Positions 4,185 to 45,206 of a DNA stretch of 64,000 bases are shown here, one piece after another. The stretch comes from Raillietiella orientalis. Its lineage: Eukaryota. The stretch covers positions 3,534,001 to 3,598,000 of the forward strand of contig JAYWIR010000005.1 in assembly GCA_036172245.1 (NCBI GenBank), read 5' to 3'. The position numbers and the translations under genes are program-made. The notes beneath the pieces were generated by a model, which was not told the DNA's origin, ran no database searches, and worked only from the letters and a program-made list of their open reading frames with translations. Position 1 is the stretch's first letter. Each line of letters begins with the position of its first letter.

Positions 4185-7100
4185 TCACTGACCACTGGGA
4201 GGAGGGTCCATCCTTCGCAGGATGCCCTCGAGGTCCGTCCGTATAATCCCCAGGTGGGGCCATCTGGTCACAATCCGCAGGTAGCGGACTGCAAGTACGA
4301 CGGCATCCCTGTCGTGATTCAGTCTTCCGACGTTGCCTCAGCACGTCACAATCCCGCGTACGCACCGAAGTGGGCCAGGGCAGCGGCTGGACGCAGGGCA
4401 GCATGCACGAACAGAAGCCGAAAAACGTCTCTGGGCTGGCTGCCCTCCTGGATCCGTAGGGAAGCACGAAGACGTTCCCACAGGGGTCGGAGGGCAGCAC
4501 AATCAACAAGGAGATGGAGGAGAGTTTGCCGTTCCCCACACCTGATGCAAGTAGGATCTACTCGACCCCTGGTCCAGTGGTGGCGGCGTGCGTTGCAGGG
4601 TAGACCCCAATGCAACAACAGAAGCGCCGACTCCTGCCACTTCAGGGGGAGGATCCTAGTTTCAATTAATACCGGGGGCCACTTCAGGTCATCCGGCTGG
4701 ATGCCGAGTAGCTCGCTCCATCTCTGCAATCCTCTCGGCTGGACACTAGGGGTACTGGCGTCCGCCAGTTTACCCGTGGACCAGCCGCTGATCAACTTCT
4801 CCTTGCCTGCGATGCGGCAGGAGACTTGCCACCTAGGCTTGCGGCTGCTAAAGAGCGCCCTTCTCAACAAGGGCATCGCCGTAGCTAGGGGGGTTGTCTC
4901 TGCCCACGTGCTTCTCGCGGGACACTGGAGTATCTTCCGCAGAGTGCAGCGGGAATAGGCGCCGCGTCGCAGGCAGTTCCACATCTCTTCATTCTTCTCA
5001 TTGATCTTCGCCCACGTGCCAGCTGTCTCCTCCAGCCATGCGGAGGAGTTGGCGGGGCTGCATACCATCCAGCCGTTTTCCTTCGCCAGAGTTGCCATGC
5101 ATCCCAGGAGAAGTCCGCATCTCTTGATCTTCTTGCCACGGCAGAGAAGATAGGACGCGAGACCCTCCGTCCCGGATACACGGCTGGCAAGGAGTCGGGC
5201 CGGAACGCACGAAGAAGTGCTCCATAACTTCGCTGCGATGGCGAGGGTTCGCCATCGCAGCTGAATCTCTACTCACTCCATCGTCAAGAGGCCGAGACCG
5301 CCATCCCGACGTGGAGCACACAAGTCCTTCAACGGGACTCGGGCCTCCTTCTTCCCCAAAGGGCAATTCTCAGGCGGTCCTTTGTCCGTTTTTTCAACTC
5401 TCTGGGGACGGGGCAAACAAAAAGCAGGGGGCGGAGGATGGGAGCCGCGAACGCGTTTCATACCGCGGCCCGTTCCGGAAGGAGAAACTTGTCTTCCAGG
5501 AACGGGCCGATCGCCGTTTCCACTTTTTGGAGGCAGCCGGACCACGCTTCCGCAGGGGAGTAGTCCCCCAACGGCACACCAAGGTACTTTAAGCACCTCG
5601 CCGTGGGGATCCCCAAGCTGACCCAGTCCTGCTGCCCAGCCCACGCCGCACCGACTGGAACCACCGTCGACTTCGCCCTGTTCACCGTAAGTCCGGTCCC
5701 GCGGCTAAGCAGATCGAAGAAATCCCCGACCGCCTTCGCCGGGGTGGACATCGGCAACAGGAGCAGAAGATCGTCGGTATACGCTGCTACGGCGGGCGTG
5801 CGATGGCACGAGCTCGGCAAGGGGCCAAAGTCACCCTGTACGCTCTCAGCACCAACTCAAAGTAGGTGCTAAAGAGCAGAGGACTGAGGCTGTCGCCCTG
5901 CCGTATGCCCCGCCGTACTGGCACACCGTACGCCATTTGACCTCTGAAAGAGATATTGATCAGCGCGCTGCGCCAGCAAGAGCGCAGGTAGGTCAGTAGG
6001 GAGGGAGGGAAGCCCATGCGTCCCAGGAGCTCCAGCAGGAGATCCTGGTCCACGCAGTCAAACGCTTTATGCAGATCGACTGCGATCGCTAGGGCTCCCT
6101 TCCCCACCTGGGAGTCCTGTCCCTGCCCGGCTGACGCCCCCAAAGCGGGGCTCCCAATCCTTCTCTCTTCCTTTTCTTTCCTACTCTGCACATGAAACCA
6201 TGTGCTCGCGAAGAAGAGGTTGGCCTCCATACTTCGCCCGGGAACAGCGTAAGTCTGCTCCGGGCTAATTATGGAATTGGCCACCTGCCCCAGACGCGAA
6301 GCCCACAGTCCGGCGATCAGCTTGGCGTCCGTGTTCACAATTGTGATCGGACGCCAGTTGCTGAGTTTCCTGAGGTCTCCTCCTTTCGGAAGGAGCCTCA
6401 CTCTGGCTGACCGAAAGGAGGCGGTTACATCGCCTTCATCTCGGATCAGCCTTGTCAACTCAAGCACCAGGGGTGCCAGCTGTGCCGCGAAGCATTGAAA
6501 AAACTCCGCAGGCAGGCCGTCCTCCCCTGGTGCTTTCCGCCTCTTGAGCCTTTTGATACTGGCGAGAATTTCGCCGGTGGTGAAAGGCTCGTCGAGGTTT
6601 TCCTTCTCCTCCTCCCCTATTGCCGGGGCACCGTTCGGAAGCAAGAGCCGAGAGGCATCTTGGTCCGGGGGCGCCCTGGCGTAAAGGGAGGAATAAAAAC
6701 GCCGCACGAGGTGCCGTATTCTAGCCGGAGCCTAGTGCTTCCGGCCCTGGTCGTCCAGCAAGCTGGCCGATCCGGATTGCCAGGCTTGACGTTCGGCCCC
6801 GGCTCGGTACTCTGCCAGGCGACGGACATTGGGGGTCCTCGCGTAACCACGGGCATACAAGTACGCTCGTTCGTTACGGATGCCCTCCTCAAATCCCCGG
6901 GGCAGGAGGTGCAAGGGGAACTCCTCGCAAAACTCGCGGACCGAGGCCTTAAAAAGGTCCCAATCATTGAGATTGCGGAGGGTGACGCCTCTCAGGAATT
7001 CGCGAAGGTGTTCTTTCGCACCTGAGAGTCGCGTCCAGTCCCCAGGCAGACGCCACGCCCTGGATGGGGGGCCCTTGTCGCGCGGGCACACCTCGAATAT

Positions 7101-9700
7101 CAACCGGAAATGGTCAGACAGCTCCGACGCAACTTTCCCCCGTTTGCCGACCCGTGAATACAGATCGACATCCAGAAAGACGTGGTCGATGCTGCTGACC
7201 ATTTCCGAAAGATCCCCTAACAAGTTGCGCGTGCGCATGGCGGCGCACAACTCGTTAGCCGTCCGTTCCTGTGCGTGTGGCTCAGCTGACAGTAGGCGGA
7301 GATTAAAGTCTCCCGCTATCAGGTGAGCCACGCGCACGTTCGCTTCCGCCAGCCAGTCGCGCTTCAGGGTTTCCAGGAACGCCTTACGTTCCTGGTACCT
7401 GGTAGGACCGCTCGGAGCGTACACATTTGTTACGACGAGGTCGATCGTGTCGGACCACCTGAGAATCAGCTGGCCGACACGACCGGCTTCGTCAAAGCGC
7501 ACGCCCTTCACGGCTGCGTCGACTGCCGGCGTCATAAAAAACGCGACGCCGCAGGTGTATCGGGTGCCGCATTGCCACATCAGGCATCAGGCAGGGCGAC
7601 AGCTTAAGCCCCTTGCTCTTCAGCATCTTCTTTGAGTTGGTGCTGAGGGCAAACAGGCTGACGCTGGCCAACCTGCCGAGCTCTTGTCCAGGAACGCCGT
7701 CCGTGGCGGCCTATGCTGACGACCTGCTTCTCCTCTTACCCATGACCACCCCGGCATCCAGTCTCGAGGATTTCTTCGAGCTGATTCGCCGGGGAGCGGG
7801 CATGAGCGTAAACCGGAGCAAGAGCGTGGTCGTACCTATTGGTGCGGCGTGGGAGGGGCAGTCCGACTGGATCCGCCTGGGGATCCCGACCGCTTCCTCC
7901 GTGCAATATCTGGGCGTTCCGCTGGGGAACATCAGCCCAATGGAAGTGTGGTCGGACTGCCTTCGGAAGGCTTCGAATGCCCTGAGCCCGTTCCACCATG
8001 GCAGGTTCGTCCTGCCGGAGCGCGCCACGATATGGAAAACCTTCGTTGCCCCTCTCTTGCGCCCCCTGCTTTTTGTTTGCCCTCCCCCCTACTCGGCCAA
8101 GCTCCAGGCGCACAGCCTGTTGAGGAACGCTCTGTGGGGACCTGCGAGGTCCAGGATCCGCCTCAAAGACTTGGCGGCTCCGCGTCGGGATGCTGGCTTA
8201 GGCATCCTGACGCTGGAGAGAATCGAGCTGCAGGTGCAGCTTCGGATGTTGGCCCTGTGCGCCAACCTTTGGTCCACTCCGTGGTGCGCTCCCGCGCGCC
8301 TGCTTCTGCAGCGCTGCACAGGCAGCGATGGACTTCTGTCGCTGCGGCCGCACACGGAGCGCGCCACGAGAAGCTTCGGTTTCCCCTTGAAACCGCTGTA
8401 TCGGCTCCTGGAAGCCCAGGGATGGATCTCCTGCCGCCCAACGAACTTTAAAGCCTGGCGGCAGGAACCGTTGCATGGCTGGGCAAAGCACCAGGATGTT
8501 TCCCTCCTGGAACTCCGTTGCGCTCACCTCTCCCCGTACTGCACGGTGGATGAGGTGTGCAACAGCCAGGAGAAGTGGACCCGCCTGGCCGTCACCCCCC
8601 TCGAAGACGCACTGTCAGCCCTCAGGGCAAGAGATGACAGTTGCGAACCGGCGAGATGGGAGGTCGCCTGCACCATCGCAGGAACAACGCGACCTATTGG
8701 CGGCTGGAAGACTTGCGAGCTGGCGGACGCCGCCACGCCTCGCCACGTTCCGAAGGGACTCCTTCGGTGGAGCGAACACTTGAGTGTGCCCCTTGAAGAA
8801 CTTGTGGTTCCTCCCTCGTGTCTGAACACTTCTGTGTTCCCCCTTTCGTGGAAGCAGGACGTGATTATGCTGGTGCATTGGGGTTTTCACTCCAACCAGC
8901 GCACGGACCTTGTTTCCGGGGGAGTCGTCTCCCCAAACTGTAAGCGGTGCGGGGAAGTGGAAACGCTCCCGCACCTGCTCCTGGACTGCGGTGCCCTTCT
9001 AGGACTCTGGCGGAGGCTGGCCTCAGCTCTCCTGCACCAGGGGGACACCGCGAGGGATTTGATGCTCCGCTTCTTCACGCCAGGCGGCCTGTCATTGGGT
9101 GCTGTTGTTGCAACCGTGTGTTGCACCCGCGCCATCGACAAGGCCCACCGAGAGTTGGAGAAGCTGGCCATCCTTCGTCAGCCCACCGGATTAGCCAGCG
9201 CAAACATGTCGTCGGCTGCCCAGTGGGCCCATCTGCCACAGGGCGTGAGGAGAGAGATCGCCGGCATCCATCGCCGGTTCTGAAAGGAAGGAACGGCTGA
9301 ACCAAAGACCCCTGTCCCCTGCCCTCCATATCTTTATTTTTATTTTTTCTATACGGTGTATTTGTGGTCCCCTCCCTCCCGTTCCGGACTTTCGGCATAC
9401 CGACCTGCGTGTCGGGGATCCCACCCCCTTCGTCTCTTGTTTTCCCCTTTGTCCGGGAACCCTGTTCCCGGATAGTTTATAATAAACGCCCCGGCGCACC
9501 CGGGTGACAATCAACCGTCCCCCTGCGATCCTTTCGATCTCCTGGGCGTTCTCCGCGGTGATCACGTGGATCTCCTGCAGGAGTGCCAGGTCGGAGTCAC
9601 GCAGGGTGGCGGCCGTGTCCCGTCTGTTGCCGTCGTCGCGCAGCCCGTTCACGTTCCAACAGGCCACGCGTAATCGACGGCGACAGGCGAGCCCAGGTGT
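4185..9700 (-). pseudogene. B1 ORF2 (APE + RT + Cys/His finger), interrupted by C1 and frameshifted
   Basis: CWNVNG...LQEIH...GGRL|MWQCG...GDFN...SDH; KAPGEDG, WRPITIVNTDAK, DLHKAFD, QGDSLSP, YTDD; CIRCGE. Confidence 0.9.
7583..9510 (+). mobile_element. 5'-truncated element C1 (RT 3' half, open to 9283), antisense inside the B1 endonuclease
   Basis: Starts at GIRQGDSL; YADD; CKRCGEVETLPH; terminus AATAAACGCCCCGGCGCACCCGGGTGACAA; B1 sequence joins across it with only 3-4 bp duplicated. Confidence 0.92.
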
Positions 9701-11721
9701 TACTCCTGGGAAAGTGGCAATGGGGCTCCCGCCACCTGGTCGGGCGGGACGGATGGAGGAACGGGATCACCGCGCACCGGTTCTCCCTCCTCCATGGGGG
9801 CCGATTCCTCGGCGGACCGCAACGGTTGAAGGAAGCGGGTTCCACTCACCTGCTCCCCCTCTTCCATGGGGGCCGATTCGTCGGCTGCGTTGGACGGCAG
9901 GTGGGAGCGGTTGTCAGCTGTCTGCTCTCCCTCCTCCATGGCTATCTCCTGGACAGGTTCCACCGATGGGAGGGGGCGGCAATCACTCACCTTATCCCCC
10001 TCCTCCATGGGGGTCTCCAGTTGCTCGGTAGCGGAGGGTGGGAAAATCCCTCCCTCCGTTCCCACGCTGCCGGCTTCCCCCTCGGATGCCGGTGCGTCCC
10101 CCTCTTTCTTTGTCGGGATGCGCCTCTTGGGATTCTTGGACTTCCGTCCAGTCTTCTTCGGATGCGCCTCCGCGGAGGAGGACGCACTTCCAGCATCCGG
10201 TTCGTGGTCACCTGTCCGAGGTGCCTTGCTCGCGGCCGGCCTTCGCAAGGCCTTTCGCGCGCCGTTCTCACGCTCCGCGAGTTCGGCCGCGAGCTCTTCC
10301 GCCGCCTGCTGGAAGGCGGCGTCCTCGATTGCGGCGATCGCGTCGCTCGGCTCCCCCTCTGTTTGCACAGAGGGTTCGCCTTTTTCGATCGCGGCTTCGG
10401 CGTCAACGAGGCGGGAGATATCTCCCCCGGTGGAGGTCTCGGGGATCTCCACTCGCTCCAAAGCGACCGAACATTCGCGGAGCAACGCGCGGCGTTGTCT
10501 CGTATTTAAAGAAGATGTCGCGGGTTCCGCTGTCGGTTCTTCGGTTTTCTTTAATTTTTTACTTTTAGGCTTCGCCTTATGCCAGCCCTCGCTCTCTCCA
10601 GCGTCGTCGGGAGTACCCTCGACCGGCGCTTGCTGCACGGGTTCGGGCTCTGGCTGTGGGTTCCGCCTCTCGGGTGCCTCCTTAGGCTTGTCCGATCGCC
10701 CCGCGCGTTTCCCTTTGGCTTTTTTCAAAGCAGGGGGAGCCGGGGTTTCGCGTTTAGTACACACCCTCCGCAGGTGGCCCTTTTCGCCGCAGTGGAAGCA
10801 CTGGATGTGGGGGCATCGTTTTTTCAGGTGCCCTGTTGCATCACAGTGCCCACAGTACTTGGGCTTGCCCACGTACCAGACGTCGACGACCTCGTTGCCG
10901 ACGTTGAGTTTGTAGGGCAGCCCACCGTTTTCGTGGACCGTCACACGCGCTGCAGCCATGCCACTGAACAGTCTTCCGTATGTTTGGAAGACGTTGGGCT
11001 TGGTCCAGAGCGCGTGCACCGTACCATGTTTTTGTAACTCTTCCTGCACGCCAGCTTTGGTCATGCGCAGAGTTACACCCGTAAGGTGGGCAACAATGGA
11101 GCGGTCCTCCGTTACAGGGAAGACCTTTCGGCCTTCCAGAGTGATGGGAGTGTTCAGCAGGCGTTGAGCCAGACTTGCATTTTTGCACGTCAGCTCCACC
11201 CGCTGGCCCCCACTCATCACGGAGAGACCTTCCAGGTCTTCCTCTTTAACATCCAATCGCTGTAACTCCCTTTCAAAGTTACGAGCGGTGTTCCCAACAA
11301 ACAGATTGCCTACCTTGTATATCAAGGACGGCTTGTATCCCTGCTCCAGGTAGGCTTTCTGCAAGGCGAATGCTGCAGGAGATGGGGCTGCAGCCACTGA
11401 ACTCCAGGTCTTCGGCGATGCCGAAGACGCATTCGAGGGTGCAGGTGCCCCCTTTTTCAAGGAGGCGGTTGCGCCCTTTTCCAGGGTTGCGGTTGTCCCC
11501 TTTTTCAAGGGGGCGGTTGCACCCTGTTCCAGAGGGGCTTTTGTTCCCTTTTTCAAGGGGGTCTTTGCCCTCGCTTCCGAGGCGGCGGTTGCCCCCTTTT
11601 TCAGGGGTGCGGCGGCCATCGCCTCCGTGGGGGCGGTTGCCCCCACCTCCGTGGGTTGGGGAGAGGAGCGAGCCTCTCCTTCTCCTATATCCATCGCGGT
11701 CTCCTCAGGCATTTCTGCCAT
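9700..11721 (-). CDS. B1 ORF1, intact gag-like protein (~673 aa) with two CCHC knuckles
   Basis: Open frame MAEMPEET...LSQE*; CGHCDATGHLKKRC and CFHCGEKGHLRRVC. Confidence 0.9.
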   Translation of the reverse strand: MAEMPEETAMDIGEGEARSSPQPTEVGATAPTEAMAAAPLKKGATAASEARAKTPLKKGTKAPLEQGATAPLKKGTTATLEKGATASLKKGAPAPSNASSASPKTWSSVAAAPSPAAFALQKAYLEQGYKPSLIYKVGNLFVGNTARNFERELQRLDVKEEDLEGLSVMSGGQRVELTCKNASLAQRLLNTPITLEGRKVFPVTEDRSIVAHLTGVTLRMTKAGVQEELQKHGTVHALWTKPNVFQTYGRLFSGMAAARVTVHENGGLPYKLNVGNEVVDVWYVGKPKYCGHCDATGHLKKRCPHIQCFHCGEKGHLRRVCTKRETPAPPALKKAKGKRAGRSDKPKEAPERRNPQPEPEPVQQAPVEGTPDDAGESEGWHKAKPKSKKLKKTEEPTAEPATSSLNTRQRRALLRECSVALERVEIPETSTGGDISRLVDAEAAIEKGEPSVQTEGEPSDAIAAIEDAAFQQAAEELAAELAERENGARKALRRPAASKAPRTGDHEPDAGSASSSAEAHPKKTGRKSKNPKRRIPTKKEGDAPASEGEAGSVGTEGGIFPPSATEQLETPMEEGDKVSDCRPLPSVEPVQEIAMEEGEQTADNRSHLPSNAADESAPMEEGEQVSGTRFLQPLRSAEESAPMEEGEPVRGDPVPPSVPPDQVAGAPLPLSQE
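11445..11645 (-). repeat. 33-bp coding tandem repeat in B1 ORF1 (PLKKGATAx, ~5-6 units)
   Basis: Repeated GCCCCTTTTTTCAAGGG-like units. Confidence 0.85.
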
Positions 11722-14174: not shown

Positions 14175-17100
14175 CGTGCTCCAGGGTGGACGCGTTTTCT
14201 CGGTGCTCCTCGTGCCAGGAAGTCTCCCCCAGTGCAAGCGTAGTGTGGTTCGGTGGTCGATCAGGCAGCGATGCCTGACGCGACCACCAGGGATGGCCAG
14301 GGGGCAGCGGAAACGCCGCCCCCAGAGGCGATGGAGAGCCAGGGGGCGGCGGCAACGTCACCCTTAGAAGCGATGGAGGTGGGGGCATCCGCCTTCACGG
14401 AATCGGTCCCCGCTGCAGCGCGGGCGTGGAGCGCCGTTGTGTCGGCGCCATCGCCTGCAGCCGCGGCGGAATTGTCGGCCTATGTGGAGGAGGGGTACAA
14501 CCCCTCATTGTTCTACAAGGTAGGCAATTTATATTCTTTAGAGAGCGCGCGCGCCTTCTCGAAGGACATGCGCGCTCTCGATGTGAAAGAGCAGGAGCTC
14601 AGCGCTATGACCATCCGCAGCGGGGTCTGTACGTTGAGGTCATCTGCAAACAAGCAGAGCTGGCCCAACGACTGCTTAAAACCCCCGTGGTGATGGGGAC
14701 GCGCAGGCTCCTCCCTACTACGGCGGACCGCAGCATGGTGGTCCACCTGTTAAGTGTTACCGTGCGGATGCGCAAGGAACAGGTTCGCGCCGGGTTGGAA
14801 GAATACGGAACGGTCCATGAGCACTGGACAACAGTTAGTCCTTTCGAGGACTACACGAGGCTGCAACACGGCCTCACTGCTGCGCGCGTGACCGTTCGGG
14901 AGGGCTGCACTCTTCCCCACAAACTGGTGGTCGAAGGCGAAACCGTCGACCTGTGGTATGTGGGGAAGCCGAAAGACTGTTTCTTCTGCAATACGTCGGG
15001 CTACCTCAAAAAGAGATGTCCTAATGTGCAGTGCCAAGTATGCGGAACCATGGGTCACACGAGGGAGGTGTGCCGTAAAGCAGCAGTGCGGCTGGTTCCC
15101 AAGAGAAACCTTAAAAACCGTGCCGGCTTCTGCAGAAAAGGCTGACTGCGAAAGCTGCCGCGAAGGCTGTGCCACCCGCGCCCAAGGCCCAGGCCGCACC
15201 CGAGACCCCGGCGAACAACGCCGAAAAAGTCAAGGGAACAAGCCAGGAGCCTGGGTGGCAGGTGGCTACTGCCAAAAAATGAAAGAAGAGGAGGATGGAG
15301 AAAAACCTCGCGTACCGCCAGAAATACAGCAGGCAAGCGAGCAAATTAAACAATGCAGCGTTGTTGTCGAGCGTATTCCCGACCGCTGCGTAAAAGAACT
15401 CGCCGCTACCGACGACAATCCCTCTGTTGACTCAGTCAACAGCGAGGGGAGCGAGCCGGCGGCGGCGTCCGTCATCGACACCAGCATCGATGACGTAGCC
15501 TTCGCGCGAGCCGCGGAGGAGCTGGCAGCCTCGTTGCAGCCAGAACCCTCCAAGGCTGGCAAAAAGGCCGTAAGGCGTCCGGACTCCCCTCAGGAGTCCC
15601 TCAATTCCGACCCCGAGGTGGAGGCCGGAAGCGCAGCCTCAGTTTCCACGGCACCGCGCAAGAAGGCTGGACGTAAGTCCACAAAGCCAAGGAAGCTCGT
15701 CTCCCCCGTCGAAGGGGAAGAGATGGCTTCCGCAAGCGAGGGTGCCATGAGCGTGGGAAACTCTCGGGACCCGTCGCCCGAGAAACTCCCACGCGCAGAC
15801 ACGGAGGGGATGGAGGGGGTGGAGGCCGAACAGGTGCCTCAGGTGCCTGAGAAGGCCGAAACCCCCATGGACATCCCGCCTGCCTCGCAAGAGGAGGGCT
15901 CCCCCACACCTTAATCTTCCCAGCAGTAATGCCGGGAATCTCCTCCCGCCGTCGTCTGCGCATCGCCGTTTGGAACGTGAACGGCATGACAGACGCCGGC
16001 AGGAGACGAGACATGGCCGCCCTTCTGGAGTCCAAGGACCTTACGCTGCTGCAGGAGATCCACGTGATCTCAGCAAAACAAGCGCAAGAGATTTCTTACC
16101 CGGTCACGCCGGGGCGTTTCTTCCATATAACGTAACCAAAAAATGCAATTATACAAAATAAACCAGTTGTGTACCAAACTCCCAACTGACGACTGAACAA
16201 GAATGAAGAGAATATTGCTGGCACGCAGGCCAAAGTAGCAGTTTTGTGAACGGTGTGGGGGTGGCGGGGAACACAAAGAAACCAAATTAAAATAAAAACA
16301 ATGAATAAGGGCGACGGGGTAAAGGTCTTTGGGATCGCTCTGGAAGAAACGGGGATAAAAGCATGGGCACGGGAAATTTTACCGAGCGAACGGGGACGGG
16401 GTATGGGTGGGCGAGAGGTCGCAGGGGTCACCGGATTGTGCCGGTCTCAAAGGTGTGTAAACCGGCGATGTATGCCGGTGATGTCCTCATTCACCTTGTC
16501 ACAAACATGAGACCACCTTGAAGCCTTCTCCATGAATTGAGCTGCAAGCAGGTGAGCCTATGTTCGCTGCGCTGACAACTCCTGGGCGTAGCGGGCCTTC
16601 ACGATGGCGCGAACGCAACACATGGTTGCGGCAATCGCGCCAACCGAAAGTCCATTTCTGCTGAAGAAGCGTTGCAGCACATCAATGGCAGTGCCTTCTT
16701 GTGGCATGATGGCCTAAGTGAGCTTTCGCCACAGTTCCCGGAGGTCACCGCAGTCCAGCAAAAGGTGCGGAAAAGACTCCATCTCTCCGCACCTTAAACA
16801 GTTTGGCAAAGCGGCTGCCCCGGAAACGATTCTTCGCTGCCTATTACAGTGTAATGTACGATGTAAAAAGAGCAGCACATCTTGTTTCCACTTAAGGGGG
16901 AACACGGAGCTGTCCAAACTAACGGGGGGAACCACTATGTCTCCAAGGGGCACACTTAAATGTTCGCTTCACCGAAGCAGGCCCTTCGCCCGATTCCGAG
17001 GTAAGGCGGCTTGCACCAGCTCCTTTGTCGTCCAGTTGCCGAGGAGCTTACTGACTCCCGGTATTTTGCAGGAGAACTCCCATTCCGCCGGTAGGAAACC

Positions 17101-19675: not shown

Positions 19676-22600
19676 TCGAACACCTTGAGGAGATCGACCG
19701 CGACCGCCAAGTCACCTGGCGTTCCCTCCTGCCGTCGGCGCCTGTTTTTCTTGCTCGCGGCAGTGACTTTCGCAGCAGCCTGGCTTTGCTGCGCCACAAC
19801 TTGCTGCAGCTGCATCCATGTACGCGCGAAAAGGATGTTCGCCTCCATGGATCGTCCCAGAACCGCGTAGGTTTGTTCCGGGCTCACCACAGATTCCGCG
19901 ATACTTCCTAACCGCGCGACCCACAGCTTGGAAAACAACTTGACGTCCGAGTTCACCAAGGTGATCGGACGCCAGTTGTTAAGTTGACGCAAGTCTCCGC
20001 CTTTCGGCAGGAGACGCACCTTCGCTGAGCGGAAGGAATCAGGGACATTCCCGGATTCACTCATCAGCGTCGCGAGTTTCTGCATCAAGGGAATGAGCTC
20101 CACTTCAAAGCACTGATAAAACTCTGCAGGGAGCCCATCCTCGCCTGGCGCCTTTCGTCTCTTCAGCCCAGCGATGGCGGACGAAAATTCATCCGCCGTG
20201 AAGTGCTCATTGAGACGTTCGCGTTCCTCCTCGCCGACAACACGATCATCCTCAGACAGGAGTATCTCAGAAAGAATATCCTCCGTCGGGGATTCCGGTA
20301 GAGCGAGGAGTAGTAGCGTCTCACAATGCGGCGTACTTCGGCTGGAGCCCTACATTCCTGGCCCTTGTCGTCAAACTGGCATGCTGCTCCGGACTGCCAG
20401 ACTTGGCGCTCGGCCCTCGCCTTGTACTCTGCGAGACGCCCGACATCCGCGCGTCTCGAAAACGTGCGGGCCTGCAGAAAGTCTCTACTGTTGGCCACGC
20501 CCTCTCCGAAACCGCGTGGAAGCCGCTGCAAGGGGAATTGGCAGCAGAACTCGCGGACAGATCTTTTGAGATCGTCCCAGTCCGCAAGTTCTTGAATGGC
20601 AAAGCCTCGGAGGTATCCACCTAGATGCTCCGCAGACTCCGGTTGGCTAGGTTAATCCGCCTGCATCCTCCAGTTTTGCAACCGAGGCCCCCTGCCAGGC
20701 GGAAGGATCTCAAACTCCAACCTCTGGTGGTTAGAAAGCCTAGTCAACAATCTTCCTCTCCTACCCACACGCGAATGCAGGTTTTTATCGAGGAAAACGT
20801 GATCGATCGATCTTTCCATTCCAGGTTCGCTGGCCATCAAGTTAGCGGCGTGCACGGACGCGCCCATCTCGATGGGCAGCGCGCGCTCCCTCGGGCGGCT
20901 CCAATCGTCGGAGAGCAGGCGGACGTTGAAGTCCCCAGCGACGAGCTGCGCCACTTGGAAGCCGGAGTTGTTGAGCCAGTGGCTCTGCACCTCACCAAAG
21001 AAAGCTACTCTTTCTTCGAGGTAGCAAGAGTCACTCGGCGCGTAGACGTTCGTAACGACGAGATCGATGGACTCGGACCACTTGATGACAAGCTGTCCTA
21101 TCCGTTCGTCGTCATCGAAACGAACACTACGCACCGCTTCCGCCATTTTTCCTCTTACGAGGAACGCGACGCCGCACGTGAGTGCGCCGCCGCACCGCCA
21201 ATGTAGCGTTCCGCCTGCGCGCTCCTCGATTTCGGCTGCCTGCTCGTCGGAGATTACGTGAATCTCCTGCAGGAGCGCGAGGTCGCAGGGACGCAGGGCG
21301 TTGGCTACTAATCGCCTCTTTTCGTCGTTCTGTAGTCCGTTTGCGTTCCAACACGTTACGGACAGACGACGAGAAGACGCGATTCCCCGCATTACTGCTG
21401 GGAAGGTGGCGGCTTTTTGCTCGCTTTATCCGGCAAGCAGACGGCGAGCAGCACGACTGGCTGGAAGGAACGGTCGCCACCGTCCTCCGTCGTGCTGCAT
21501 GCATGTAATGCCTCCACGCCAGGCTTAACCCCGTCGGGTTTCGTGGAGACTTCGCGTTGCTTCGCGGCGAGCGTTGCCTGGCTACCTACTTTTAATCGGC
21601 GCGCACACGCTTTTGAACAAGTTGTCCTCGTCTCGGTGATCGGAACGGCATCTATTTCGGAGTCCGACCGGCGCATGTTCGATCGGGTTTCGGCCTTCCA
21701 CGAAGTAGTGACAGGTTCTGCTGGATTGACAGCTGTCCTGTTTTCGTTTTTTGTCACCAGAGCATCGCTTTTGGTGACGGCTGCTTTCCCGGCGCGCGCG
21801 TTTTCAGCGTGCTCACGCGCAGTTGCACGAGGGACCTTTGCTGAAGTCTTCTTTACTTCATTACGGTTCCTCACTTCGCCTGGCGCCGTAAATGGAGATC
21901 GTGCTCCATTGCCATCTTTGAAGCCATCCGCGTCTTTAAACGGGAGCAGTTTCGATGGCTCCGACACGCTCGTCATGGACGCTGCCTTCGGAAGGGCTTT
22001 TATTCCCTTCGTTGGCATGGCATCCGTGCCAGTCGAGAGCTTGCTCTTCGACTGCGACGGCGTGAGATTTTTCTCCGCTTTCGCGGTGTTGGATCGCGAC
22101 GCGGATTTTTTTTTGCCGACTTTGGAAGTCGACACGGCACAACCCTTCTTACCCGATTTGGGCTTCTCAGCCACTGCAGGAGGTGAAGGAATGGATCCGA
22201 CGGTACTGGAAGTGTCCTTACCGCCGTTGTCCATTGGCGTCCCCGCCAGTTGCTCGAACTCCGAAGGAGCCGGGCGTGCTTGGGAAGGACAGCTATTGCG
22301 CCTAGGGGGACCTACCATTGCCTCGCATTCTCCGCACCCTTTCTTTTGCGACTTCCCTGCCGCGAGTGGGGGCGCGCAGGGCTTCGCGTGCTAGTTTTCC
22401 TGCTGCTTTGGGGCGACATTCCGCTTCGCGTTTTTACGGAATTTCTGCCGTGGGGTCTCCAGGTTTTATCGCATATTTTTTCTTTTTATCCGCGCTTTGT
22501 TTTTTAAGATGGAGCTCCGCGGCTACCTTTTTTCGCAAAAGATCCGGGCAATATTTCAATTGGTGCCCGGATAGTCTGCAATAACGGCATTTTCCAGAGG

Positions 22601-23393
22601 GGCATTTATCCAAACAATGCCCCTCCTTCTTGCATTGCTCGCACGTTCTTACTTTGCCCACGAACCACAGGTGAACGACCGTGTCTTTCACCTGTAGTTT
22701 GGTGGGCAGCAGACGGCGGTCCGGCATTGTAAGCCGGACTCCAGCGACTCCGCTTTGTGTGGACGGGAAGTCCTTGATGTTTCTATGCACCCTCCACAGC
22801 GCATCGACCGTGGCGAATTTCGCCAACGTGTTCCGAATATCAATATACAAGATTTCCGACTCGATGTGGAAAATCTCCGCCACAAATGAGTCGTCCATGG
22901 CGGCCGGGAAGACCTTCTGGCCACGGATCGACAACCGGGTGCGCAGCAAGCGTTGCCCAAGTGCAGCGTTTTTGCAAAGCACCTTGAAATAGCCCATATC
23001 CTTTACGGGCATAATGGCGAGGAGGTCCTCCTCCCGCACGCCAACACGGGTCAGTTCATCGTTGAACTGATTCCCGTCGCGCGCGAAAAGAAAACCACTC
23101 ACCTTATATCGGAGAGCAGGTATATTGCCTTGGGCTACGTATGCCCGCAACTCCGACTCGTCGAGTGGTTTACCTTTCACGGCTGCTGTGGCGGCAACGT
23201 CAGCAAAACTTCTCTCCATTGGCGAGAAAGACGAAGTGAAGGCGGCCGCCGGTTCCGCGATAGCAGATCCGGATGCTGTTCCTCCAGCTTCAGTAGCTTC
23301 GGGTTGAGTCGACATCGCCGTAAAAATGTACGACGCCAAGATGGAGCGGATGAAAGCACGGAGAGGAGAGTGAAGAAAAACACGTCCGCACTC
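19676..23393 (-). mobile_element. Element D1 5' half (ORF1 23315-21392; ORF2 from 21392 to the RT DxxKxFD motif, where A2 interrupts it)
   Basis: 5' GAGTGCGGACGTG; CEQCKKEGHCLDKC and CRYCRLSGHQLKYC; TAATG junction; APE motifs; AVDLLKVFD. Confidence 0.92.
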
Positions 23394-25693
23394 GATTGAA
23401 ATCTCCCACAATCAGGTGAGCCTTCCGCACGTTCGTGTTCGCCAGCCAGTCGCGCTTCAGGGATTCAAGCAGCCTGGTGCCTTCGCTGTATCCCTGTTTA
23501 CCGCTGGGGGCGTACACATTCGTGACGATCAGATCGATCGAGTCGGACCAGCCGAGAGTCAGCTGACCGACCCGACCGTCGTCATCGAAGCGCACGCCCT
23601 TCACGGCAGCGTCGATAGCCGGCTTCACGAAGAACGCGACCCCGCAGGTGTTGCGGAGGCCGCATTGCCAGTACAGCCGACCCCCCGCGATCGTGTCGAT
23701 CTCCTGGACGTCTGCCGCGGTGATCACGTGGATCTCCTGCAACAGGGCCAGGTCGAACTCCCGCAGGGTGTCGGCTGTATCTCGCCTGTTACCGTCGTCG
23801 CGCAGCCCGTTGACATTGCAACAGGCCGCGCGAGTCCGACGGCGACTGGCGAGTTCAGAAGTTTCTCCTAGGAAGATGGCAATGCGGCGTCCGCCACCTG
23901 CTGGGGTGGGACGCTAGGTGGAGGAGGAGGGTCAGGTGCTGAAGGCACCTGGTCCCCCTCCTCCATAGGTAGCGGCGCGTCGAGCGGGTCACCCACAGGT
24001 GGGGTCGCGCCTATCTGTTCGCCCTCCTCGATGTGGGCGGGCTGTTCAGAGTCGGCGCCTGCAGGGAGGACTTCACCCTCCTCCATGGGGGTGGCCGGTT
24101 CGACGGCTTCCGGGCGTGAGAATTCCTCCTCCGAACTTCCCACGCTGGTGACGGCTTCCGTCTTCTCCTCCTCGCTGGTGGAGGGGAGGCGCCTCCTGGG
24201 CTTCTGGGAATATCGTTCCGACTTCCTGGGGGGTGCCTCCGAGGAGAAGGATGTACTTCCGGCCCCCGGGTCTAACTCAACTGTGGGGGCCTTCTTCGCA
24301 GGAACCGGCCTTCGCACGTCCTTGCGCGAAGGGTTCTCACGCTCGGCCAGCGTGACCGCGAGCTCCTCCTCCGCCTGCGCGAACGCGGCGTCCGCGGCTT
24401 CGACCGCCGCTATGTCACGCGGCTCACCCTCTGTGTAAACAGAGGGTTCGCCGTCGCGAGCCTCGGCCGCGACGGAAACGGCAAGGAGAGGATCGTTGCT
24501 CCGGGTGGCAACCTCGGGAACGACGATTCGTTCCAGTGCCACCGTGCACTCGCGCAGAGTTTTCGAGCGCGGACCGGGTTTTTTCGGCTTACCGGCCGTC
24601 TTGCGCTCTTTGCTCTCCGCGGGTGGGAGTTTCTTTGGCTTTCTGACCTCTTCATGCTGCCATCCCTCTTCGCCTTCCACCGTTTCAGAAGGTTTATCCT
24701 CCGGCTTACGCGCCAAAGGTTGAGGTGTTGGCAGCTTGTGCTGGCCGTTTACCACTTTAGGTCTAGAGACCTTTGAAGCGCGTTTCCCCTGCGGTTTTTT
24801 CGCGGCAGGGGGAACTGGGGTGGGGCGTTTGGGGCACACGCGCTAAACGTGGCCCCGCTCCCCGCACAAATGGCATTGTATATTGGGACACCTTTTACGT
24901 AGGTGTCCCACGGTATCACAATGCCCGCAATACCGGGGCTTTCCTACATACCACAGGTCGACGTTTTCTTGCGCCACCTGTAGTTTGTGGGGAAGCCCAC
25001 AATTCTCCCTTACGGTGACCCGCGCTGCCGCCTGCCCACCAAAAAGGCTATCGAAGCCGTCGAAAATGGAGGGTTTCGGCCACAGTGCGTGCACCTCACC
25101 GTACTTTCGCTGTTCCTCACCAACCGCTGACCGCGTTATGCGGCTGGTGATGCCAGTCATGTGGACCACCACGGAGCGGTCCATTGATACTGGCAGGATC
25201 TTGCGGCCGTCTACGTTCAGCGGCGCATGGATTAGGCGGTGAGCCAAGGTGACATCTTTGCAGACCACCTCGACCCGCTGCCCGCCGCTGAGGACGGAGA
25301 GGCCGTCCAGATCCTTCTCAGTGACATTCGCGTCCTTCAACGCTTTGCTGAAGGCGCGCGCTGTCCGTCCGTCGAACAAGTTGCCTACCTGGTAGACAAG
25401 CGATGGCTTGTACCCGGAGGCCTTGTATGCGGCCATCTCCGTCATGGCTTCTGCGCTGGGCGCGGCCACCATTGCGCTCCATGTCTTCGGCGTGGCCGGG
25501 GATGATTCCGGGGCGGCTGCCCCTGCTCCAGTAGGCTGTGGGGGCGTAATAGCCTCCCCCACTCCCACCTCCATCGCGGTGTCCTCTGGCGTCGTGGCCA
25601 TTGGACACCGACGATGTACACAAAACACCACACACAAGAAAGCGCTTTCCTACTACTCTTTGAGGAGTGAAGGAAAAACACGTCCTCCAACTA
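23394..25693 (-). mobile_element. Element F1 5' part (ORF1 25601-~23865; EN up to GDFN, where D1 interrupts it)
   Basis: 5' GGAGGACGTGTTTTT; CGHCDTVGHLRKRC; LQEIH...NVYAP...AHLIVGDFN. Confidence 0.9.
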
Positions 25694-33500: not shown

Positions 33501-34052
33501 GCTTGCTGTTCGCCAGACCAGTCCGAACTCGTCGGATAGCCGTCGATACGCCGTCCTTCCTCTGGCGTCTTCTGAATGTATGATCTCATCCAAGATGTTG
33601 AGATCGCCAGCAACAATCACGACGTCCTTAGGGGTGACCTTTTGCCGGAGTGCTGCATGCAGCGCCTCCGCACAACGATGTTTTAGCCTGTGCGGCTCGT
33701 ACACGTTCACCAGGATAAGGTGAACAGTTGCGGACCAGGCCAGTCGCACGCCGATGATTCGTCCGGGTTGGGGACAGAACACTTCCAGAATAGTGGGGGC
33801 TAAGTGGTTCTTTATTAGCACCGCCACACCCTTCGTGTTCCGTTCTCCTTCGTTGACGAACATCTGCCCGTTGAATCGCCGTTCTATTCGCTGGCTTATC
33901 TCGAGACCCATCCTGGGGGTCTCCTGCAGGCACACGATGTCTTGTTGTGCGATGGTCCGCACAATCCTTCTTCTTTTTCCCTGGTCGACCACAGTGTTTA
34001 CGTTCCAGGAGGCGATGTTCAGCCTCCTGGCGGTCGATAGGGAAGAGGTCAT
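30535..34052 (-). pseudogene. J ORF2 (APE + RT + Cys/His finger), with frameshifts near 33400 and 31810 and further stops
   Basis: Consecutive ORF-track segments 33390..34157, 31813..33405, 31330..31791, 30964..31236 and 30535..30963. Confidence 0.88.
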
Positions 34053-34065
34053 AAAAGGGGAAGAC

Positions 34066-35826
34066 CTATTTCTTGGCCTTCCTGAGCTTCTTCTGTCTGG
34101 GAGAGCGTGCTCTTCCAGACGTCGAAGAAGCAGCGGGCTTCTCGCTGCCGGCGTCACTCTCCGTACCTGTGAGGTCGGTAATTTCTGCCTCCTCCGTAGA
34201 GTGTTCCGCCCGCGCGATCAATTTTCGAGATAGCGCCTCTATCTCGACCTTTGCGCAGAAGTTCGCCTTCACGTCGAGAAGCTGTTCCTCTAACTTCTCG
34301 CGTTCAGCGACCTCCACAACCTGGTTGATGTTCTCTTGTGCAGTGCAGATCTTCTGCAAGATTTTCTCTTGCTGAGGACCGCTCTCCACCTCCATGATCT
34401 CCTTCGCCAGTGTTGCAAACTCCTCCGTGGTCTGCAGAGCCTCCTGCGACACTTTAGTGGCTTCCTGTCTCTCTTCCTTCGCGCCTTCCTGCGCTGCTGC
34501 TTCCAGAATTTGAGGAGTTCCTTGCTCCTTGACGAGCATCCTCCTCTTTCCCTTCTTTCCCACTTCTATGAAGCCGTCCGCCGACACCGGGACGGCTTCT
34601 TTCACCTTTTTCGGCCTTCCTGCCTTCTGAGGCTGTTCGGCCTCCTTGATGTTTCTTTCTCTCACGGGAGAGAGACCTCGAATCCTTCTGCAGTTTTCAA
34701 ACTCCGGACAGCTCCATTTCGCATGTCCGTGTTTCTTGCAGAAGGAGCACACCTCTGGCTGCGGGCAGTTTCGGACTTGATGTCCTACTTTGCCGCAGCG
34801 AAAGCAGCGGCAAGTTAGGCAAGCGCCGGCCCTGTGGCCGAACTGCTTGCACCCGGTGCAGAATACCGGTTGTTGCCGGTAACGCACATTCACTCCCTGG
34901 GATTGTTCGTCAATAACGGCCAATCCAGGGATCACCGCTCCCTCCCTCAACTTCATCTTGGCGATCATGTCGCCAGAAAATATGTTTCCAGAGAAGTTCT
35001 GGAAATCAAGGTCCAGAACTTCCCCAAACTGCTTAAAGTAATTCCACACCGCTAGTTGCGGTGTGAGGATGGAGATGCCGTTTAAAAAGACGGTTGTGTA
35101 TGGCATCTCGCCAATACCACAAACCATCCGTCCTTGTATATTGATCCCCTTCTGGATCAATCGCTCTCTAATGTTTTCACAGTCTGTAAAGACTGTGAAC
35201 CCGTTGTTCGATGGAATGATCGCCTGAATGCGATCAAAGTCTATGTCCGTCTTGTCGAATGACAAATAGACCTCCCTGATGTTATTAAATTTTATTAGCC
35301 CGGTCTTGAAGATAATGGGCTTCACGTTATGGCCTATTTCGACTATTGGTCGGTCCACTTTTAGAACTTTTCCGCTAAGCGGCTTACCAAATTTCCTAGG
35401 TGGGTGGACACTCGCCTGTGCAGCCGCCACCGACGCATAAGAAAAGGGCTGCGACGCCGCAGCCGAACAAGATGGCGTCGCTTCCTGCTCCGCGTGGACG
35501 CCCGCGGGTCCCGCCTGGGACGCCGCCGCCGCGGGCGCAAACCTCGACGTTGCCGCCGTTACCGCCGCGGGCGGCACCCTCGGCATCGCCGCCGCAGGCG
35601 CGACCTTCCCCGCCGCGGGCACGATCCTCGGCGTCGCCGCCGCGGGCACGACCTCCGCCGTCGTCGCCGCGGGCACGACCCTTGGCATCGCCGCCGCCGG
35701 CGCAGCAAAGCCCGCCGCGGGCGCGATCCTTGGCATGCCTGCCACCGCCTCGCCGTTGCCGCACGTTACCTCCATGGCTTCCATGGGGGACGACGGTCTC
35801 TCCACTCCTCCTCCATGTGCCTGCAT
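34066..35826 (-). CDS. J ORF1, intact gag-like protein with three CCHC knuckles
   Basis: CTGCKQFGHRAGAC, CFRCGKVGHQVRNC, CSFCKKHGHAKWSC; first ATG inside the element is at 35826. Confidence 0.85.
   Translation of the reverse strand: MQAHGGGVERPSSPMEAMEVTCGNGEAVAGMPRIAPAAGFAAPAAAMPRVVPAATTAEVVPAAATPRIVPAAGKVAPAAAMPRVPPAAVTAATSRFAPAAAASQAGPAGVHAEQEATPSCSAAASQPFSYASVAAAQASVHPPRKFGKPLSGKVLKVDRPIVEIGHNVKPIIFKTGLIKFNNIREVYLSFDKTDIDFDRIQAIIPSNNGFTVFTDCENIRERLIQKGINIQGRMVCGIGEMPYTTVFLNGISILTPQLAVWNYFKQFGEVLDLDFQNFSGNIFSGDMIAKMKLREGAVIPGLAVIDEQSQGVNVRYRQQPVFCTGCKQFGHRAGACLTCRCFRCGKVGHQVRNCPQPEVCSFCKKHGHAKWSCPEFENCRRIRGLSPVRERNIKEAEQPQKAGRPKKVKEAVPVSADGFIEVGKKGKRRMLVKEQGTPQILEAAAQEGAKEERQEATKVSQEALQTTEEFATLAKEIMEVESGPQQEKILQKICTAQENINQVVEVAEREKLEEQLLDVKANFCAKVEIEALSRKLIARAEHSTEEAEITDLTGTESDAGSEKPAASSTSGRARSPRQKKLRKAKK
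35500..35745 (-). repeat. GC-rich coding minisatellite in J ORF1 (PAAA/PRxxPAA units)
   Basis: Repeated CGCCGCGGGC(A/G)CGA units. Confidence 0.85.
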
Positions 35827-41242: not shown

Positions 41243-41465
41243 GCGTGCAAACGTGTTGTCTTTGCGCTTTTGCCGCACCAGTTTGCGAAGCTTTTCTTTA
41301 GTGTTCTTTTGAGTGGTGAATCGCCGTTATTTCATGGCAGGACTGCCTGAGGACGCCACGGTGGATATTGGAGGAGAAGAGGATTGTTGCGCTCCTTAAT
41401 ACACGCAGGTAGGGGAAACTGCACCAAGAAGGAGAGAACAAACGCTCCCTTTTCCAAGGACACTA
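41243..41465 (+). mobile_element. Degenerate 5' end and ORF1 start of a B-like element (P)
   Basis: TGCAAACGTGTT (decayed 5' motif); MAGLPEDATVDIG resembles B1 MAEMPEETAMDIG. Confidence 0.55.
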
Positions 41466-41536
41466 ATGAAGACGGGAAGCCCAAGCGTTCAGGAAGCTCC
41501 AGCACGAGATTTTTGTTGACGCTGTCGAACGCCTTG
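41466..41536 (-). mobile_element. Short O-like RT fragment that is the A3 target
   Basis: KAFDSVNKNLVLELPERLGFPSS; similar to 40565-40640. Confidence 0.75.
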
Positions 41537-44500: not shown

Positions 44501-45206
44501 CCATGGAGGAGGGTGAACAGGGGGTGAAGTCCCCCCTGCAGGCGCCGACCCTGAACAGCCCGCCCCCATGGAGGAGGGCGAACAGGTAGGCGCGACTCCA
44601 CCTGCGGGTGATCCGGCCGACGCGCCGGCACCGATGGAGGAGGGGGACCAGGTGCCTTCAGCACCTGACCCCCCTGCTCCACCTAGCGTCCCGCCCCAGC
44701 AGGTGGCGGACGCCACACTGCCATCTTCCCAGGAGTAACACCTGGGCTCGCCAGTCGCCGTCGGATTCGCGCGGCCTGTTGGAATGTCAACGGGCTGCGC
44801 GACGACGGTAACAGGCGAGATACAGCCGACACCCTGCGGGAGTTCGACCTGGCCCTATTGCAGGAGATCCACGTGATCACCGCGGCAGACGTCCAGGAGA
44901 TCGACACGATCGCGGGGGGTCGGCTGTACTGGCAATGCGGCATCCGCAACACCTGCGGGGTCGCGTTCTTCGTGAAGCCGGCCATCGACGCTGCCGTGAA
45001 GGGCGTGCGCTTCGATGACGACGGTCGGGTCGGTCAGCTTACTCTCGGCTGGTCGGACTCGATCGATCTGATCGTCACGAATGTGTACGCCCCAACCGGT
45101 CAAAAGGGATACAGCAACCGTACCAGGCTGCTTGAATCCTTGAAGCGCGACTGGCTGGCGAACACGAGCGTGCGGAAGGCTCACCTGATAGCGGGAGATT
45201 TCAATC

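Follow-up and report, generated by a model that had tools for sequence, protein, structure and literature searches.

An ORF2 without AUG on the ORF1 stop codon in L1-like retrotransposons of Raillietiella orientalis: possible termination-coupled restart

Background

The stretch of Raillietiella orientalis DNA considered here (contig JAYWIR010000005.1, positions 3,534,001 to 3,598,000; "the window", 64 kb, whose own coordinates are used below) is a nest of non-LTR (non-long terminal repeat) retrotransposon copies inserted into one another, with a G+C content of about 60%. Two of its families, B and F, have a second open reading frame (ORF2) that abuts the stop codon of the first (ORF1) and lacks an AUG; two others, A and D, carry ATG at the same place. 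Judged by their sequence, B and F are best explained as related lineages of an L1-like long interspersed nuclear element (LINE), with a CCHC-bearing ORF1 and an ORF2 that encodes an apurinic endonuclease-like (APE) domain and a reverse transcriptase (RT).

The UAAUG coupling of SART1 is said to have been described by Kojima et al. in 2005, and unconventional termination and reinitiation in human L1 reportedly by Alisch et al. in 2006. SART1, a telomeric LINE of Bombyx mori, translates its ORF2 by UAAUG stop-start coupling, for which a downstream structure is needed (PMC3894237, PMC5972666). Translation of human L1 ORF2p is AUG-independent and needs completion of the upstream ORF (PMC4091050, PMC1965478; also PMC5972666). 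In Zorro3 of Candida albicans, changing the ORF2 ATG to ACG leaves retrotransposition at less than 5% (PMC1965478), and because of this result AUG-independence is not general among L1-like elements. NLTR-B, a relative of the Dictyostelium elements TRE5-A and TRE3-A, encodes its RT in an ORF that lacks a start codon (PMC5911963). Finally, in the phenomenon named START, a stable structure downstream favours initiation at codons other than AUG, and for CUG the optimal distance is +23 to +26 (PMC11165317).

The elements of the window resemble SART1 in the stop/start overlap without a spacer and in a downstream structure, and A and D have the exact TAATG together with a predicted downstream hairpin. 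B and F differ from SART1 in that they read TAACA, with no start codon in the overlap; they belong to the L1-like group, with no sequence relation to SART1 shown, and the role of their structure is a predicted one. Human L1 provides the experimental precedent: on its bicistronic RNA, ORF2 is translated independently of the AUG. There, however, a 63-nt spacer separates the ORFs, the AUG is naturally kept and its dispensability was seen in engineered mutants, whereas B and F lack the AUG by nature and have no gap between their ORFs. Zorro3 is likewise L1-like with two ORFs, and the role of its ORF2 ATG was tested; unlike those of B and F, its ORFs do not overlap, and dependence on AUG was the outcome. 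AUG-less ORF2s and AUG-independent restart are both already on record. What is particular here is a coupling of the TAATG type in which the ATG has been lost in place in one lineage, beside ATG-bearing sisters and with the strongest downstream hairpin.

The ORF1/ORF2 junctions

The window was searched with the regular expression TTCCCAG[CG]AGTAA plus two bases. All seven junctions found lie in the same register, five of them reading TAATG and two TAACA, which bears out a preliminary description of this DNA that had reported an in-register replacement of TAATG by TAACA in the ORF2 of B and F. The coordinates give the T of TAA.

2518, 15927 and 54851, plus strand: family A, TAATG
47205, plus strand, and 21394, minus strand: family D, TAATG
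9702, minus strand: B1, TAACA
44736, plus strand: F2, TAACA

The UAAUG overlap of SART1 is thus present in all five A and D copies and absent from B1 and F2. The features of the two TAACA elements are as follows.

9700-11721, minus strand: B1 ORF1, intact, from the ATG at 11721 to the TAA at 9702-9700, coding for a CCHC zinc knuckle and a tail of acidic repeats
9692-9710, minus strand: B1 junction hairpin (predicted), CCCAGG and CCTGGG around the loop AGTAACA, which holds the TAA (9702-9700) and the ACA (9700-9698) that replaces ATG
9629-9681, minus strand: B1 downstream hairpin (predicted), 53 nt, enclosing the WNVNG-coding stretch
9512-9700, minus strand: B1 ORF2 codons 1-63 (TPGLACRRRLRVACWNVNG...), then interrupted by an insertion
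7581-9511, no strand assigned: foreign insertion of 1.9 kb that splits B1 ORF2 and contains the 3' part of another LINE on the plus strand
5147-7580, minus strand: remainder of B1 ORF2, covering the rest of APE and then the RT; it is broken by one or more in-frame stops (6732-6734) and one or more frameshifts (near 5820)
42989-44738, plus strand: F2 ORF1, from the ATG at 42989 to the TAA at 44736-44738, with a frameshift in the acidic repeat tail, the upstream frame stopping at 44527
44728-44746, plus strand: F2 junction hairpin (predicted), a 19-mer identical to that of B1, with the ACA codon at 44738-44740
44757-44809, plus strand: F2 downstream hairpin (predicted fold)
44738-45208, plus strand: F2 ORF2, codons 1-157, coding for the APE domain and cut off by an inserted D element
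23303-25688, minus strand: F1, a duplicate of F2, its junction near 23864 decayed to GAGAAACTTCTGAACTC

The 17-mer GAGTAACACCTGGGCTC occurs exactly twice in the window, at 9689-9705 (minus strand) and 44733-44749 (plus strand), and the two sites are homologous repeat copies, not chance matches. The ORF2 products begin MPGISSRRRL in all three A copies, MRGIAS.RRL in both D copies and TPGLA.RRR in B1 and F2, and these N-termini align codon for codon as far as WNVNG. Translation also agrees with the earlier observation that neither B1 nor F2 has an in-frame Met before this endonuclease motif. Upstream of ACA, the ORF2 frame, which is in the -1 phase relative to ORF1, is open for just 22 codons in B1 and 17 in F2, all of them Met-free. 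No spacer separates the ORFs, since the first A of the ACA codon is part of TAA. The last 13 nt of ORF1 (TTCCCAG.AGTAA) are identical in all seven intact junctions, and further upstream the ORF1 tails of A, D and B/F cannot be aligned with one another. A third junction of the B/F type, the decayed one of F1 on the minus strand, was absent from the preliminary description. It has ACT where the ATG used to be, so that the second letter of this codon is still C.

F1 (25688-23303) and F2 (42900-45300) are 94.3% identical over 2399 nt and have their downstream truncation in common. They lie in a 6.2-kb inverted duplication (42731-48924 on the plus strand against 25857-19676 on the minus strand, 94.6% identity) that also contains both D copies; the duplicated segment carries a truncated F element whose ORF2 is interrupted by a D element. 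Because F1, F2 and both D copies lie within it, F counts as one insertion and D as one insertion.

Inheritance of the ATG loss and selection on ORF2

At the DNA level, B1 and F2 share about 80% identity across the junction and codons 1-157 of ORF2, against about 70-75% for either with A. Within the 24-nt junction they share six changes relative to A and D. Since B and F are each other's closest DNA relatives and have these six changes in common, a single ancestral loss is the economical account, and the absence of ATG in B and F is probably one inherited change and not two parallel events. The ORF2s of A, of D, of a distant LINE family near 34 kb and of a database relative (P0002, see below) all begin with Met, so ATG at the ORF2 start was probably the ancestral state.

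ORF2 stayed under purifying selection in the AUG-less lineages after the loss, as read from the ratio of nonsynonymous to synonymous divergence (dN/dS) between B1 and F2. Over the 157 codons dS is 0.53 and dN 0.15, a ratio of 0.29 (bootstrap 95% interval 0.17-0.46); for codons 1-63 by themselves the ratio is 0.20 (0.07-0.46). In the ORF1 core the ratio is 0.12 (0.07-0.24), at saturated synonymous sites (proportion of synonymous differences, pS, 0.73), and the last 45 ORF1 codons are nearly neutral at 0.79 (0.40-1.48). The AUG-less state looks functional because ORF2 shows a ratio of 0.29 after the loss. A function had been proposed earlier on the ground that the same two-base change occurs in two families. 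The measured ratio fits that proposal, while its premise of two independent events finds no support, B and F being related lineages with six common changes.

The B1-F2 divergence is itself discordant, with a pS of 0.73 in the ORF1 core and of 0.38 in the 5' part of ORF2. This suggests a mosaic (recombinant) origin of B and F, or a much faster turnover of ORF1.

Predicted RNA hairpins at the junction

The interval 9692-9710, singled out in the preliminary description, is exactly the 19-nt palindromic hairpin CCCAGGAGTAACACCTGGG. A hairpin with the TAA in its loop is the minimum-energy fold of a 32-nt junction piece in all four intact junction types (-9.7 to -10.8 kcal/mol). The corresponding regions of A and D are these.

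54841-54924, plus strand: family A junction, TTCCCAGCAGTAATG, with junction hairpin and downstream hairpin (54872-54924); the same junction recurs at 2508-2522 and 15917-15931
47195-47278, plus strand: family D junction region, with TAATG at 47205; the intact ORF2 of 909 codons spans 47174-49903, and the duplicate junction lies at 21390-21404 (minus strand)

In A and D five pairs, a mismatch and three further pairs make up the stem of the junction hairpin, whose loop is GTAA. In B and F the stem is CCCAGG with CCTGGG, six perfect pairs, and the loop measures 7 nt; the six B/F-specific changes, that from ATG to ACA included, rebuild the hairpin in a new pairing register. In the decayed F1 the junction hairpin is lost (-3.1 kcal/mol, z +0.2). 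Energies are listed below with z-scores and shuffle counts from 200 shuffles per piece; across the junction types, 2 to 10 of the 200 shuffles fold as well.

B1 junction: -9.7 kcal/mol, z -2.0, 7 of 200 shuffles as good
F2 junction: -9.7 kcal/mol, z -1.87, 10 of 200 shuffles as good
A junction: -10.8 kcal/mol, z -3.06
D junction: -10.8 kcal/mol, z -1.89
B1 downstream hairpin: -34.1 kcal/mol, z -5.97, 0 of 200 shuffles as good
F2 downstream hairpin: -40.1 kcal/mol, z -7.49, 0 of 200 shuffles as good
A downstream hairpin: -27.6 kcal/mol, z -3.39
D downstream hairpin: -18.3 kcal/mol, z -2.02, 8 of 200 shuffles as good
Distant family hairpin: -26.1 kcal/mol, z -4.3; it encloses the WNVN-coding stretch, and its start lies about 15 nt past the A of the family's own ATG

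Measured from the T of TAA, the distance to the start of the downstream hairpin is 21 nt, and from the stop codon it is 18 nt; this puts the start at +20 from ACA or ATG and at +23 from GTA. The hairpin is predicted to be strongest in B and F, the families without AUG, and B1 and F2 thus have, in silico, the downstream structure that belongs to coupling of the SART1 type. In the consensus fold of the alignment, 9 of 24 pairs are kept through changes on both sides, two of these being inner pairs of the downstream hairpin. Such pair-preserving changes are suggestive support for the predicted hairpins, drawn from three to four independent lineages only. The arrangement is like START in that a stable structure stands at a fixed distance, and the distances from ACA and GTA fall within about +20 to +26. 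It differs in that START concerns a scanning 43S complex and AUG-like codons, while in B and F the ribosome would be a post-termination one and the candidate codons are two positions off AUG.

Six substitutions lie within the 22 nt of the F1 junction (about 23851-23872, minus strand), where C-to-T or G-to-A changes make up four of the six; the overall F1-F2 divergence is about 5.7%. The substitutions fall in the CCCAGG/CCTGGG palindrome. This decay may reflect a methylation-deamination hot spot or a loss of constraint after the duplication.

Related copies and database relatives

One DNA run (X1), searched as contigs and with a word share of 0.17, possibly represents another strain or species with orthologous copies. 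Of its contigs, 81 align to B1, none at 99% identity or more, 8 at 95-99%, 25 at 90-95% and 48 below 90%. Three of them, records 2, 3 and 4, span the B1 junction, and no difference falls in 9675-9738 among the 40 of 279 differing places listed. Differences confined to a single contig are listed elsewhere at depth 10.1, matching record 3, and at depth 7.54. Records 3 and 4 have depths of 10.1 and 7.55, and a junction difference in either would probably have been listed too. Record 2, at depth 3.9, is too shallow for the junction to be judged. These data hint that TAACA is the common state among the B-like copies of this run, which is not the same as a consensus.

In protein collections, a word-index search with the N-terminal piece of F2 gave no match at E <= 1e-5 among 381 candidates of 95-305 residues. 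An exhaustive search of representative proteins returned 147 matches, two with E <= 1e-10, and the only close one was P0002, a D-like protein of 54% identity that starts MRGIASS. No B/F-like protein was found in the collections searched. Metagenome contigs yielded six loci of 23-35% identity, none close enough for the junction to be read. In viral contigs a degenerate junction pattern gave three matches, set aside as due to chance, none being followed by APE-coding sequence.

Restart without AUG and its alternatives

Most likely, ORF2 of B and F is translated by a termination-coupled, structure-assisted reinitiation that no longer needs AUG, a reading to which we assign a probability of about one in two. 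The common ancestor of B and F would have lost the ATG of a TAATG stop-start overlap through its change to ACA, and both lineages would have kept propagating, with ORF2 still translated by the mechanism that serves the ATG-bearing sisters A and D. A ribosome ending ORF1 at the TAA would not be fully released and would restart in the -1 frame, at or beside the stop. It would be held there by local RNA structure, namely the hairpin with the stop in its loop and the long, very stable downstream hairpin, and the much greater strength of the latter in B and F may compensate for the missing AUG. The analysis shows the TAACA state and its inheritance, the purifying selection on ORF2, the lack of a productive slippery site and the predicted folds; that such a restart takes place, where it does so and that the hairpins cause it is what we infer. 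In a stronger and more doubtful version, a natural LINE lineage would restart after the stop at a codon unrelated to AUG (ACA or GTA), at a site set purely by RNA architecture, the start codon being dispensable. The architecture in question is the predicted stop-in-loop hairpin followed, one ribosome footprint downstream, by a predicted hairpin of 20-23 bp.

Several points weigh against restart without AUG. None of the three B/F copies in the window is alive: B1 ORF2 has the insertion, a stop and a frameshift, F1 and F2 are cut at codon 157, and F2 ORF1 is frameshifted. Only two of the B/F insertions are independent. No near-cognate start is conserved between B1 and F2, and ACA and GTA, each two positions from ATG, are not near-cognate; the nearest near-cognates are an ATT 7 codons upstream and a GTG at codon 12 in B1, and an ATC 5 codons upstream and an ATT at codon 10 in F2. 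The hairpins are predictions and lie within coding sequence, that downstream in D is weak by its shuffle count, and the minimum-energy structure of a 120-nt piece of B1 lacks the junction hairpin. A 27-nt block identical in B1 and F2 was considered as a sign of exceptional conservation and rejected: at 80% identity it is not unusual, since runs of this length or longer arise in 4546 of 20000 shuffles, and another stretch of 27 identical nt occurs elsewhere. The protein tree of the 157-residue piece does not resolve a clade of B1 and F. Minority copies with ATG may exist in X1, given that 40 of its 279 difference rows are listed. The effect of the ORF2 ATG mutation in Zorro3 (PMC1965478) points the same way.

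The broken state of every B/F copy and the low number of insertions would also suit a defective lineage, in which TAACA is disabling and the B/F subfamily is non-autonomous or dead; either its copies were mobilized in trans by an ORF2 protein of the A/D type, or the true B/F masters keep ATG. The ATG-bearing A and D elements of the same window could supply the enzyme, and Zorro3 loses more than 95% of its activity when ATG becomes ACG (PMC1965478). A lineage mobilized in trans should, however, lose constraint on ORF2, and the dN/dS of 0.29, with an upper bootstrap bound of 0.46, therefore speaks against trans mobilization. The six-change remodelling of the junction common to B1 and F2 dates the loss before the split of B and F, and among the listed differences the B-like contigs of X1 offer no well-supported alternative letter at the junction. 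We regard a defective lineage as unlikely, though it is the strongest of the alternatives. Splicing would dispense with a start codon in another way: the invariant, pyrimidine-rich TTCCCAG would be a 3' splice site, and a donor within ORF1 would join the N-terminal part of ORF1 in frame to ORF2. It would account for YYTTCCCAG being identical in all seven intact junctions though the ORF1 tails are otherwise unalignable. A phase-compatible GT[AG]AG stands upstream in every family (A -254, D -422, B1 -569 and F -486, a homologous ERE-coding site), and the ORF1 tail between these donors and the junction evolves near neutrality over its last 45 codons. The phase match is nevertheless uninformative, for a GT[AG]AG within an ORF cannot be in phase 2 and pairs of Arg/Gly with Glu/Lys codons favour phase 1, as in all seven sites of F2. 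There is no donor near the ORF1 start codon, and neither of the two X1 contig joints listed removes the segment, both lying in the repeats at 11355-11570. Spliced human L1 RNAs give dead-end copies (PMC5860796), and A and D keep an ATG on the stop that splicing does not require. We regard splicing as improbable.

The usual spacing of frameshift stimulators is 5-9 nt. The predicted hairpin of B and F begins 18 nt past the stop codon, beyond that spacing, which tells against a programmed -1 frameshift in the short ORF1/ORF2 overlap that would yield an ORF1-ORF2 fusion. This mechanism is assumed for the Dictyostelium elements TRE5-A and TRE3-A, which are said to require -1 frameshifting for ORF2 (PMC5911963). 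They are natural LINEs in which, as in B and F, the overlapping ORF2 is in a different frame from ORF1 and lacks a usable start, and in B1 and F2 ORF2 does lie in the -1 frame, the overlap is open for the codons counted above and predicted hairpins are nearby. B and F differ from them in lacking a productive slippery site and in having sisters that use an ATG on the stop. The ORF1 frame of the B1 overlap contains no X XXY YYZ heptamer; the single one of F2 (44669-44675) is unproductive, as a stop in the ORF2 frame follows at 44684-44686; and no slippery motif is common to the two, so that the earlier remark on the absence of a canonical slippery heptamer holds for the productive overlap of both elements. 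The ATG that A and D keep exactly on the stop points to restart rather than fusion. Frameshifting is the least supported reading and, in our view, very improbable. The preliminary description had left AUG-independent reinitiation and a -1 shift side by side. The AUG-less state does look functional and, as far as the sequence goes, the frameshift is without support.

The elements and their surroundings

The family assignments draw on several searches. With the intact D ORF2 as query, tblastn finds more than 30 ORF2 fragments on both strands of the window, and its residues 74-888 are matched in the B1 continuation (7583-5147); B1 is nearly full length. The D ORF2 matches the Pfam families Exo_endo_phos (E 3e-13) and RVT_1 (E 7e-20), an N-terminal APE domain followed by an RT, and the F2 ORF2 piece matches Exo_endo_phos (E 1.9e-10). 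That ORF1 encodes a nucleic-acid-binding protein is seen in B1, which matches the Pfam family zf-CCHC (E 2e-4, 21.7 bits against a cutoff of 20.8). Two CX2CX4HX4C knuckles are visible in ORF1 of both B1 and F2, and ORF1 of the distant family near 34 kb also has a CCHC zinc knuckle. No Pfam family matched a 357-residue stretch of D ORF1. Among 12 further ORFs of the window, Pfam showed no host-gene domain and just one more CCHC knuckle, and scans of the 64 kb for Rfam families and tRNAs found none. Around the junction, identity among the three A copies is 93.5-95.3%.

The distant LINE family (33985-34070, minus strand) has 27% identity to D in ORF2, and its junction consists of a TAG, a 14-nt pyrimidine-rich spacer and a normal ATG. 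An open frame of 1058 codons upstream of F2 (41351-42900, plus strand) is a read-through of two ORF1 units and not a single gene: a fragment of A-family ORF1, with 93.7% identity to 911-2147, runs on in frame into the F2 5' untranslated region and ORF1. Both edges of the 7581-9511 insertion in B1 carry a short TTGAT repeat that resembles a target-site duplication. ORF1 of B and F contains tandem coding repeats, acidic ones of the PMEEGE type near the C-terminus and others of the KKGAT type near the N-terminus (9750-10000 and 11350-11620, minus strand; 44480-44660, plus strand). Contigs of X1 skip 92 and 87 nt in the N-terminal repeats (joints 11355-11448 and 11482-11570), which indicates variation in repeat number between copies.

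Implications

How ORF2 is translated from a bicistronic LINE RNA has been framed by the coupling of SART1 and the AUG-independence of engineered L1 on one side and the AUG-dependence of Zorro3 on the other. In the window, nature supplies the comparison: elements of a single group in a single genome differ in the start codon but have the stop context and the hairpin distance in common. If young B/F copies carry ATG, the finding amounts to an inherited defect only. If the AUG-less lineage is active, its junction would be a compact test system of about 200 nt for how post-termination ribosomes are positioned and for whether structure can stand in for a start codon. And if codon-independent restart is true, it would be an evolved termination-reinitiation element in a cellular genome, for which the sister families A and D, with their ATG, would be ready-made controls.

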